From the NCBI GenBank assembly GCA_965223665.1, contig OZ245011.1, forward strand, positions 1,152,001-1,216,000: DNA of 64,000 nt. The letters run 5' to 3'. Shown here in pieces: positions 34,269-37,254 of this stretch (position 1 is its first letter; every line of letters begins with the position of its first letter). The DNA comes from Nitrospinaceae bacterium (GTDB taxonomy: Bacteria; Nitrospinota; Nitrospinia; Nitrospinales; Nitrospinaceae). The position numbers were made by a program, and so were the translations under genes. A model generated the notes under the pieces. It was given only the letters and a program-made list of their open reading frames with translations. It ran no database searches and was not told where the DNA came from.

Positions 34269-35369
34269 TTAGGCTACTGCAAGATGGGACTGTTCGTAGA
34301 GAGTATCTCTTTGGAGTGGGATCCGACCTGCTTCTTGAATCATTTCAACAATACGGTTTTTTCTAAAAATCTGGTCAGTGGTGGCACCAGCGGCATGAAT
34401 AATTTTTTCCTCCACAACTGTCCCATCCATATCATCTGAACCAAACCCTAAAGACATTTGCGCAATATTCTGAGAAATCATGATCCAGAAAGCCTTTATA
34501 TGAGGGAAATTATCGAGCATTAAACGAGACACAGCCAGTGCACGTATATCCATTTGGCCTGTTGTAGGATGAATGAAATCCAGAGGTGTATTATCAGGAT
34601 GAAACGCTAATGGAATAAACGTTACAAAACCACCTGTTTTATCTTGTAAGTCTCGCAATCGAATTAAATGATCTACACGCTCTTCAATTGTTTCTAAATG
34701 CCCATACAACATGGTGGCATTACTTTTTAGACCAACTGAATGAACGGTTTCGTGAACTTCCAACCAACGTTCCCCTGTTATTTTTTCATTACAGATTTTT
34801 CGTCTTACTCGTTTTGCAAATATTTCAGCTCCGCCTCCCGGAATAGATCCAAGACCAGCTTCTTTCAAATCTAATAAGGTTTCCTTTAGGGGCATTTTTG
34901 CCAGTTGAGCTAAATAATCTAATTCAACCGCAGTAAAGGCTTGAATATGAACTTCAGGGAACCGTTCCTTTAATCCCTTTACCATATCGTAATAGTAAGA
35001 ATAGGGTAAATCTGGGTGTAACCCACCTACAATATGAAACTCACTAACCTTGCCTCTTTCATAAGACTCAGCATCCTTAAAAATTTCTTCAAGGGTTTTT
35101 TCATAGGCATCAGGGCGGTTTTCCTTTGTTCCAAAGGCACAAAATTGGCAACTGTGGAGGCAAATATTAGTCGGGTTTATATGACGATTATGAATAAAAA
35201 ATGCATTGTTCCCATTTAACCGTTCGCGGATTATATTGGCTAAATGACCAACTCCCAAAAGATCTGGTGTTTGGAATAAGACAATACCTTCATCAAAAGA
35301 AAGCCTTTCTCCGTTATAGACCTTTTCAGCAATAGGATTTAATCGTTCATCTAAAAATTCAAACAGCAT
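34269..35369 (-). CDS. mqnE: Aminofutalosine synthase (radical SAM)
   Basis: NRHINPTNICLHSCQFC, EFHIVGGLHP, PGGGAEIF, SNATMLYGH, HIKAFW; near mqnP. Confidence 0.85.
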   Translation of the reverse strand: MLFEFLDERLNPIAEKVYNGERLSFDEGIVLFQTPDLLGVGHLANIIRERLNGNNAFFIHNRHINPTNICLHSCQFCAFGTKENRPDAYEKTLEEIFKDAESYERGKVSEFHIVGGLHPDLPYSYYYDMVKGLKERFPEVHIQAFTAVELDYLAQLAKMPLKETLLDLKEAGLGSIPGGGAEIFAKRVRRKICNEKITGERWLEVHETVHSVGLKSNATMLYGHLETIEERVDHLIRLRDLQDKTGGFVTFIPLAFHPDNTPLDFIHPTTGQMDIRALAVSRLMLDNFPHIKAFWIMISQNIAQMSLGFGSDDMDGTVVEEKIIHAAGATTDQIFRKNRIVEMIQEAGRIPLQRDTLYEQSHLAVA

Positions 35370-35505
35370 AAGAATTTACACCCGAAAATTTGAAAAAGGG
35401 ATTATACCTGATTCCATCCTAAAAAAGAAACCCAATAAAATAGCTTCAAATGGAGGAATCTTCTTTTCCTCGGAAAAAGGAAAAAAATTTATTCGGCAAA
35501 ATGAA

Positions 35506-35742
35506 TTAAGCAACCTGCTTGGCGAGAAGAACCCCAGTAGACCATCCACTTGAGGTCAATGGGCTCCTGGGGTCCTTCCCGCCATTTAGCAATTCCCGTT
35601 CGATCCGCTTGTTTTTTGCTCGTTTATAAACCTTTATAGAAGGCTTTACCTGCAACCGATATTGTCCATTGCTTAATGATTGAGCAACAGGATTTTCTTT
35701 TTGTAAAACCATTTTCTTTCCTTTTGACTTTTGTCGTTTCAT
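35506..35742 (-). CDS. ArfA-like alternative ribosome rescue factor candidate
   Basis: AAGGAG RBS; basic 78-aa protein with KENPVAQSL...YRLQV...VYKR; long hairpin in the 3' coding region. Confidence 0.6.
   Translation of the reverse strand: MKRQKSKGKKMVLQKENPVAQSLSNGQYRLQVKPSIKVYKRAKNKRIERELLNGGKDPRSPLTSSGWSTGVLLAKQVA
35520..35584 (-). other. Long RNA hairpin inside the 3' end of the ArfA-like CDS
   Basis: Minus strand TGGCGGGAAGGACCCCAG ... CTGGGGTTCTTCTCGCCA, 18 bp including G-U pairs. Confidence 0.8.
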
Positions 35743-35760
35743 AGACAGTCTCCTTTTCGA

Positions 35761-36627
35761 TTAAATCCAAAGGCAGTCAACAATGACTACTGACATTAAT
35801 AATACACTAATTATCCCATTAACATTAAAAAAGGCCAAATTTACCTTGGATAAATCCTTACTACTCACCAGCGAATGTTCGTACCATAATAATCCACCAA
35901 CAACCAAAACTCCTATTAAGTATCCCATTTCCAAACCAGGATGTACTAGCAAAATAAGTAAAAAAATAATCATTAACCCATGTGACATCAAAGCAATAGA
36001 TAAAGCGCGATCCACACCATAGCTTTGAGGTATGGAAAAAAGATTATTTTTTTTATCAGATTCATAATCCAAGCAAGAATATATGATATCAAAACCAATC
36101 AACCAAAAAACAACTGCCGTTCCCAATACTAAAGAAATAATTGAGATTTCTTCCCTAATAGCTACCCACGCTCCAACAGGGGCCACCGACAAGGCTAAGC
36201 CTAAAAAGAAATGGGAATACGGTGTAAAACGCTTGGTCAAAGAATAGAAAAAAACAATTGCAAGTGCCAACGGTGAAAGTAATAAAGCTAAGTGATTTAA
36301 CCTTCCACTCGCCCAAACAAATATCGCAGCAGATACCACTAAAAAAATTATATATTGCGGCGTTCCGGTTTTCCCTGCAGGCAACGCCCGACCTTCTGTC
36401 CGTGGATTTCTGGAATCTATCCGTGCATCGACAAGCCGATTGAAGGCCATTGCACTATTTCGTGCAAAAAACATACAAACTATGATCCATCCCAATTTAT
36501 CCCAATCTGGTAAACCTTCTGCTGCCAAAAAGGCACTCATTATCGCAAATGGCAAAGCAAATATTGTGTGCTGAATCTTAATATCCGCAAAAATGACTTT
36601 TAATTGTTTAAAAAATGAACGTACCAC
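35761..36627 (-). CDS. mqnP: UbiA-family prenyltransferase of the futalosine pathway
   Basis: IKIQHTIFALPFA, ARNSAMAFNRLVDARIDSRNPRT, GFDIIYSCLD, AFFNVNG. Confidence 0.8.
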   Translation of the reverse strand: MVRSFFKQLKVIFADIKIQHTIFALPFAIMSAFLAAEGLPDWDKLGWIIVCMFFARNSAMAFNRLVDARIDSRNPRTEGRALPAGKTGTPQYIIFLVVSAAIFVWASGRLNHLALLLSPLALAIVFFYSLTKRFTPYSHFFLGLALSVAPVGAWVAIREEISIISLVLGTAVVFWLIGFDIIYSCLDYESDKKNNLFSIPQSYGVDRALSIALMSHGLMIIFLLILLVHPGLEMGYLIGVLVVGGLLWYEHSLVSSKDLSKVNLAFFNVNGIISVLLMSVVIVDCLWI

Positions 36628-36882: not shown

Positions 36883-37254
36883 ATGAAAAAGTTTATTCTA
36901 ATAATTGTAACAATATTTCTATTTCAAGGGATTGCACAAGCGGATGATGAAAATAACAAAGAAAAAAATATCAATCAGGTTAAAGATCAAATTTTAAAGC
37001 ACACAGATAAAAAGATTTCCATTCTCTCTAGCTTTAAATCTTGTGTAAGTTCTGCCAGTTCTAAGGATGATATAAAGTCTTGTCATCAAGAAAAAAAGAA
37101 TTCAATGAAAGCTGTAAAAAAAGAAAACAAAGAAAGGAGAAAAGAATTTCGAAAAGGCAAAAAAAGAGGAAAAGGAAGAAGGAATAAAGGTCGCAAAAAT
37201 AAAGATGACGATGATAACGAAAATGATGACGACGACGAAAAAAATGATGACTAA
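36883..37254 (+). CDS. Hypothetical secreted helical protein with basic/acidic tail
   Basis: AGGAGG RBS, signal peptide, C-x11-C pair. Confidence 0.75.
   Translation: MKKFILIIVTIFLFQGIAQADDENNKEKNINQVKDQILKHTDKKISILSSFKSCVSSASSKDDIKSCHQEKKNSMKAVKKENKERRKEFRKGKKRGKGRRNKGRKNKDDDDNENDDDDEKNDD

Follow-up and report, generated by a model that had tools for sequence, protein, structure and literature searches.

ArfA, a small factor whose hallmark is the KGKGS motif, acts on ribosomes stalled on stop-less mRNA and is the closest described counterpart of the gene reported here. Published overviews, among them a survey of over 15,000 genomes from 2024, limit ArfA to the Gammaproteobacteria, some Betaproteobacteria and the Bacillus subtilis group (PMC8012679, PMC11633108); with so narrow a range, many lineages seem to be without a back-up to trans-translation. 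Residue F25 of ArfA is described as sitting in an RF2 pocket of V198 and F217, and the same excerpted source describes no single residue of the KGKGS tail as essential for activity (PMC6299226). BrfA of B. subtilis is presented, in sections of three papers, as a small RF2-dependent factor made from non-stop mRNA and repressed by trans-translation (PMC6881298, PMC8012679, PMC11633108). The ArfA and BrfA systems are described as species-specific (PMC8012679). ArfT of Francisella tularensis is characterized in part of one report as a small basic release-factor-dependent peptide without the exact KGKGS motif (PMC6299226); it is 40 amino acids long and is reported as being without truncated-mRNA regulation, and Burroughs and Aravind assign it to a separate repeat family (PMC6514570). 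Pelagiphage HTVC027P encodes a protein, gp30, listed in a section of a further paper with a Pfam ArfA domain (PMC12753301). Our literature searches (Nitrospina, SAR11, SAR86) found no paper on the Pfam family DUF7230 and, among main texts, nothing linking the DUF7230-like family or the Nitrospinota to ArfA.

Here, we report a gene of a Nitrospinaceae bacterium that probably encodes a divergent ArfA-type rescue factor under ArfA-like control by a non-stop mRNA; we infer its rescue activity, the cleavage of its message and its dependence on tmRNA. The gene lies in the window, meaning the whole 64,000-nucleotide stretch that was analysed (assembly GCA_965223665.1, contig OZ245011.1, positions 1,152,001 to 1,216,000), and window positions are used throughout. 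Its features and neighbours, in transcription order, are as follows.

36627 to 35761 (35761..36627), minus strand: upstream neighbour, UbiA-family (MqnP-like) prenyltransferase (Pfam UbiA, 1.1e-51; TIGR01475, 295.8 bits)
35750..35755, minus strand: ribosome-binding site AAGGAG, read from the sequence, 7 nt before the ATG
35506..35742, minus strand: ArfA-like open reading frame (ORF), 78 codons (ORF list), stop TAA at 35506-35508
35605..35706, minus strand: conserved core, residues ~13-46, aligning with the RF2-contact and mRNA-channel segment of ArfA
35521..35583, minus strand: in-frame RNA hairpin, codons 54-74, 26 bp interrupted by three small internal loops
35506..35520, minus strand: terminal sense codons K-Q-V-A and the stop, 3' of the hairpin and present in full-length transcripts only
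34269..35369, minus strand: downstream neighbour, MqnE, aminofutalosine synthase (TIGR03700, 498.4 bits; cut-off, 434.55)

The original prediction, made from the letters of the DNA, had described a basic 78-residue ORF with its own ribosome-binding site, located between mqnP and mqnE. The ORF list and the AAGGAG box bear out the ORF and its start, and a GGAG-type site stands upstream of most homologs of the 78-codon ORF. The placement held for MqnE and was loosened on the other side, where the upstream gene is an MqnP-like member of the UbiA family that scores above the TIGR01475 cut-off but leaves the MqnP models below theirs.

The N-terminal two thirds of the ORF are conserved as protein. 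Residues 1-53 are basic (16 K+R versus 3 D+E), and in an alignment of 20 Nitrospinales orthologs (A1) the residues P18, A20, L23, S35, Y39 and R41 are invariant and protein conservation stops near residue 46-50. Compared with the homolog of a same-genus genome (G001), codons 1-53 carry 12 synonymous and 8 non-synonymous changes and codons 54-78 carry 1 synonymous and 7 non-synonymous changes; with ratios of 12:8 and 1:7, the first two thirds are selected as protein and the last third is not, and codons 1-53 are, by these counts, under purifying selection.

Taken singly, the window protein has no Pfam or NCBIfam match (E ≤ 10), the ArfA and DUF7230 models included, and its BLASTP comparison with E. 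coli ArfA gives an E value of 1.8. The Pfam ArfA model (PF03889) matches none of the 20 A1 members, and no canonical ArfA was found over its cut-off anywhere in the genome; the Nitrospinales-only A1 profile matches no Protein Data Bank (PDB) chain at E ≤ 10. Besides the window protein itself, a word-indexed protein search returned a single 79% relative. All clusters holding the 20 family proteins are named "hypothetical protein," and one of them also holds an unrelated 453-amino-acid helicase.

Family profiles reach further. Searched against 1.84 billion representative proteins, the A1 profile retrieved 268 small proteins (E ≤ 1e-3; 34-100 amino acids throughout the best 150 of the 268), and 149 of these, the window protein included, make up alignment A2. 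The nearest Pfam model is DUF7230 (PF23876), matched by 64/149 A2 members at E ≤ 1 (best, 4.8e-7) and by 5/20 A1 members (best, 0.0018), with the relatives scoring 17.7-26.1 bits and not reaching the gathering score of 27 bits; four A2 members match ArfA weakly (best E, 0.008). A1 aligns with A2 minus its 13 closest rows at 99.1% in hhalign (E = 1.6e-18), and the Nitrospinales family and DUF7230 have in common the motif NP(V/I)AK..L...(Y/F)R.(R/K)V..SKK.Y.R.

Canonical ArfA was represented by 35 diverse sequences (A8), namely E. coli ArfA and 34 metagenome loci. Metagenome contigs were scanned with patterns derived from enteric ArfA, and 43 of 58 loci were extracted; near-identical enteric loci, one locus cut by a contig end, four near-duplicates and L156-L160 were left out. 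A2 aligned with A8 at 94.2% in hhalign (E = 1.2e-7, 40 columns), A2 without its Nitrospinales rows at 93.6%, and A1 alone at 58.3% (E = 9.7e-5); against a narrow enteric ArfA alignment, the values were 88.8% for A2 and 10.6% for A1. Over 60 column permutations of A8, the maximum scores were 17.2 and 15.1 (versus 39.3 and 27.6 observed), and the reversed A8 alignment scored 8.6 and 8.1, so that composition does not account for the match. An hmmsearch of the A2 profile against 177,635 PDB sequences gave seven hits at E ≤ 10. ArfA chains take the first six places (E = 0.0011-0.0068) and are the only hits below E = 1; the seventh has E = 2.6, and no BrfA chain is among the seven. The idea of a divergent ArfA is thus supported at the level of family profiles, A2 strongly and A1 less so, and the profile comparison proposed with it was positive by this route only, the single protein matching no ArfA model. 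Since the ArfA match runs through an intermediate family that is itself uncharacterised, the argument for membership is a chain of transitive steps.

The links of this chain can be followed in short proteins from other lineages. Scanning species genomes for the family's N-terminal motif gave 26 loci (SAR86, Pelagibacteraceae, Bacteriovoracaceae, Bacteroidota and others). All four Pelagibacteraceae intermediates pass the Pfam ArfA gathering score (26.4-32.1 versus 25.5 bits) and carry KKGKGSF after the family N-terminal motif; SAR86 and other scanned proteins match DUF7230 below its cut-off, and one (L027) matches nothing. BLASTP of the window protein against one Pelagibacteraceae short ArfA gives E = 7e-5 over 20 residues. 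These Pelagibacteraceae forms share the N-terminal motif of the window family and, unlike the window protein, pass the Pfam ArfA threshold, have KGKGS, are 35-38 amino acids long and end at an ordinary stop without a hairpin, as seen in the 35-38 codons of L040-L043 on metagenome-assembled contigs. Approached from the side of ArfA, proteins found through its KKGKGS pattern have NP(V/I)AK...PK(Y/F) in L156 and L160 and a looser version of it in L157-L159. DUF7230-like members are also encoded by Roseobacter phage CRP-13 and by T4-like Acinetobacter phages, where they are annotated as hypothetical proteins (MW514247.1, HQ698922.4, PP174317.1, MK240351.1).

Compared with E. coli ArfA (YhdL, PF03889), the window protein is similar in size (78 versus 72 codons) and has a basic core that aligns over 37-40 columns, in which hhalign and hmmsearch place its Y28 on ArfA F25, giving an aromatic residue at that position, and its Y39 and R41 on Y39 and R41 of ArfA. 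It differs in its N-terminal motif (NPVA versus DNAI of ArfA), in its phylum (Nitrospinota versus the surveyed proteobacterial and B. subtilis range), in lying below detection by the Pfam ArfA model, being known here from sequence alone, and in having no KGKGS loop. The last difference had been noticed at the outset and is seen in the alignments as a three-residue gap opposite G-K-G, where the window reads S-I-K-V-Y-K-R; the E. coli ArfA sequence given for that comparison agrees with the database record. A likeness between TTGLLL of ArfA and STGVLL of the window protein had also been pointed out. It is real, and both stretches come from the 3' arm of a hairpin, but it is not conserved in Nitrospinaceae, where genus g2 encodes G-L-M-G-S-F at this place, and as a homology signal it is treated as coincidence. 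On these comparisons, the window gene fails formal Pfam membership and is without KGKGS, and it is a profile-level relative of ArfA that is built like arfA.

The hairpin spans exactly the first base of codon 54 to the last base of codon 74 (35521-35583), with 26 pairs, a 17-bp outer stem and a predicted energy of -43.6 kcal/mol. The 18-bp stem first proposed at 35520-35584 corresponds to this outer stem plus a flanking U-A pair. Folding of the coding strand over 35490-35620 (131 nt) gives -57.6 kcal/mol (z = -5.9; 0/200 shuffles as good), and the reverse strand gives a weaker fold (-45 kcal/mol; z = -3.4), as expected from two G-U pairs read within the outer stem and in line with the G-U pairs originally assigned to the coding strand. 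For 600 crudely defined gene 3' ends taken from this chromosome, the strongest fold over 70 nt averages -13.3 ± 4.3 kcal/mol (minimum, -28.6), and none reaches -30, versus -46.0 kcal/mol for the window gene. The hairpin sequence is single copy in the genome, on which ground an origin from a repeat or mobile element was rejected, and Rfam gave sub-threshold miRNA-precursor-like matches only. The terminator scan called no intrinsic terminator at the window hairpin; its stem is followed by AAGCAGGUUGCU, with no U-run, and a nuclease therefore has to be assumed. The hairpin is proposed as a candidate place for an endonuclease to cut or for the transcript to end prematurely, either of which would leave a non-stop mRNA.

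The arrangement is that of arfA, in which a hairpin of ~22 bp starts at about codon 51 in E. coli (131-nt stretch, z = -4.97). In both genes, a hairpin of ~22-26 bp lies inside the 3' coding end a few codons past the conserved core, and the tail that it encodes is poorly conserved and partly hydrophobic. An energy of -25 kcal/mol is reached by 24/34 canonical ArfA gene ends versus 5/600 ends of the window genome, two sets that differ in GC content, and by 0/5 of the L156-L160 forms.

Nearest relatives of the gene keep the hairpin. It was found inside the 3' coding end at 13/13 loci of genera g1, g2 and g5 (23-36 pairs), with the stop codon 2-31 nt past the hairpin (at a greater distance in L014) or inside the 3' arm or the basal extension of that arm. 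Alignment of these 13 hairpins (A6) led RNAalifold to predict 21 pairs, of which 10 are changed on both sides, and 98.9% of cells are paired; the observed covariation was reached by 0/500 shuffles, and controls with slid partners gave at most 4 compensatory pairs versus the 10 observed. The 13 sequences represent three hairpin types and 10 come from one genus, so these changes amount to few independent events. The covariation check suggested with the original prediction therefore shows conservation with compensatory changes across Nitrospinaceae homologs (10/21 pairs, 13 loci), and by this pattern the hairpin is under selection at the level of RNA, not of protein.

Farther away, the 3' end is built differently. 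At four loci of other families (L015, L017, L019, L021), the stop codon lies inside a hairpin of unrelated sequence with 25-38 pairs; a weaker hairpin was found at L018 (-22.5 kcal/mol), and U-rich 3' flanks adjoin the hairpins of L015, L016, L017 and L021. For these four stop-enclosing, terminator-like hairpins, ordinary transcription termination past the stop would fit as well. In total, 18/30 distinct family genes examined within the order have a strong 3' hairpin; the 12 without one belong to g12 (2/2 genes), g9 (2/2), f2 (6/6) and g3 (2/3). No 3' hairpin was seen in the SAR11, SAR86 and other short forms either, so non-stop control is not family-wide.

Family members were found in 38/61 genomes of the order (A2 profile, E ≤ 0.01), distributed over 15/20 genomes of the window genome's own family (f1), 13/29 of f2, 4/6 of f3 and 5/5 of f4, with one copy per genome except in G035, which has two. 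A six-frame query with the single protein (E < 1e-3) detected it in 15/20 same-family and 5/5 sister-family genomes. Genus g4 of the same family (G004, G008, G011, G013; 96-99% complete) had no family match at E ≤ 0.01. The four g4 genomes are also without ArfB, and these searches recognised no back-up to tmRNA in them.

The partners that ArfA has in its hosts are present. The window genome encodes tmRNA (202 bits), SmpB, RF1, RF2 and RNase III. Its RF2 is 75% identical to RF2 of Nitrospina gracilis and N. watsonii, and in prfB (L059:1425-2544) a short frame stopping at 1518-1520 overlaps a main frame that is open from 1477, which appears to be the usual layout of a programmed +1 frameshift. 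RF2 keeps V198, F217 and SPF, in a region that is conserved in RF2 generally and so is not discriminating. Other back-ups were sought as well: ArfB was found neither in the window genome nor in any of the 61 order genomes (E ≤ 1e-10), and no NFACT_N/RqcH domain was found in the window genome. A complex prediction of RF2 (340 amino acids, 52-row alignment) with residues 1-56, run without controls, scored 0.00 and speaks neither for nor against an interaction.

From these likenesses, a probable mode of action can be outlined. When a ribosome has stalled at the 3' end of an mRNA that has no stop codon, the small basic peptide would bind in its empty mRNA channel; by homology, the core (residues ~13-46) would lie in the vacated channel and the strand around Y28 would be presented to RF2. 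A class I release factor, most likely RF2, would be recruited and the nascent chain freed. Supply of the peptide would be set at the hairpin, whose 26-bp length suits RNase III. It would be cut by RNase III, by analogy with arfA, or in some homologs would end transcription; most messages would then be without a stop codon, and their product would be tagged by tmRNA-SmpB and degraded, so that the peptide would accumulate only when trans-translation is saturated. By its description as a small RF2-dependent factor made from non-stop mRNA, BrfA is like the gene proposed here; ArfT is like it in being a small basic release-factor-dependent peptide without exact KGKGS, and unlike it in size and in the reported regulation.

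C-terminal alanine is seen at the full-length ends of these ORFs. The window ORF ends in Q-V-A, and 7/20 Nitrospinales ORFs end in Ala; an Ala-Ala end is present in 16/35 canonical ArfA ORFs of A8 (for example, L-I-A-A, S-K-A-A and R-Q-A-A). Ala-Ala endings are reminiscent of the C terminus of the ssrA degradation tag, and Ala endings might be a mark on full-length read-through products for proteolysis.

Three other explanations were weighed against an ArfA-type factor with non-stop control. The one that survives best, although we think it unlikely, keeps the relationship and changes the function: an ArfA-superfamily ribosome-binding protein with another role (use of RF1 as well, hibernation or assembly), whose hairpin serves mRNA stability or 3'-end formation. 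It would fit the loss of KGKGS, a nearest Pfam model that is a family of unknown function, and the wider family, in which most of the DUF7230-like proteins seen have 35-50 amino acids, ordinary stops and no 3' hairpin; ArfT is a described example of how partner and regulation can vary among small factors (PMC6299226). It sits less well with an aligned segment that is exactly the RF2- and mRNA-channel-contacting part of ArfA, with an aromatic residue at the F25 position, or with a hairpin that starts where protein conservation stops and is selected as RNA, as in arfA.

Less probable still, and by a clear step, is that the hairpin acts mainly as a signal for processing or attenuation of an mqnP-mqnE transcription unit, with the small ORF as its passenger or leader peptide. 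Synteny is what recommends this explanation: mqnE lies downstream at 14/14 other f1 loci searched, an MqnP-like gene lies upstream at 12/14, and the window hairpin is about 136 nt upstream of mqnE. But mqn neighbours were found at 0/5 f3 and f4 loci, where the genes have strong 3' hairpins; g3 keeps the mqn synteny, yet two of its three genes are without the hairpin; and the protein core is conserved far outside the mqn operon. The original prediction had also suggested that cleavage could uncouple mqnP from mqnE expression; the hairpin accompanies the gene outside the mqn context as well and so does not primarily serve the mqn genes. The spacer between the ORF and mqnE (35376-35505, minus strand; 136 nt) holds a U-rich stretch in which a weak A/U-rich hairpin lies (UUUUUUUCCUUUUUCCGAGGAAAAGAA) and, near 35400, a TATAAT-like box, elements that may be a promoter or terminator arrangement of mqnE. 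Elsewhere in the neighbourhood, 36883-37254 (plus strand) is a 123-amino-acid ORF with a signal-peptide-like start and a tail very rich in Lys/Arg and Asp (K/R runs followed by D/E/N).

A chance ORF over a structured noncoding RNA or repeat element, to which the sub-threshold Rfam matches might point although they show merely a long hairpin, is already contradicted by the conservation pattern (single-copy hairpin, synonymous excess in codons 1-53, a ribosome-binding site and a family match at E = 1.6e-18) and would be very hard to sustain.

The divergent ArfA-type factor with non-stop control thus is our preferred reading. Around it a broader proposal can be drawn, for which, taken jointly, we see the case as evenly balanced. 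The Nitrospinales family, the DUF7230-like mini-proteins (those of SAR86, SAR11, Bacteroidota, Bacteriovoracaceae and some phages) and canonical ArfA would form one superfamily of mRNA-channel sensors; ArfA-type rescue would extend beyond the beta- and gammaproteobacteria, with the KGKGS loop dispensable; the hairpin switch would be a module gained, lost or swapped for unrelated hairpins by lineage; and Nitrospinaceae, in which no ArfB or RqcH was found, would rely on the gene as their sole back-up to tmRNA.

If the protein is an active rescue factor, a marine nitrite-oxidiser lineage, the Nitrospinaceae, would gain a back-up pathway in a setting where the searches found neither ArfB nor RqcH, a Pfam family of unknown function would gain a testable role, and a natural factor would be seen to do without the KGKGS loop. 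The 3' designs that differ by lineage, with the hairpin in the ORF, over the stop or absent, would offer a natural series for the evolution of a tmRNA-coupled switch.
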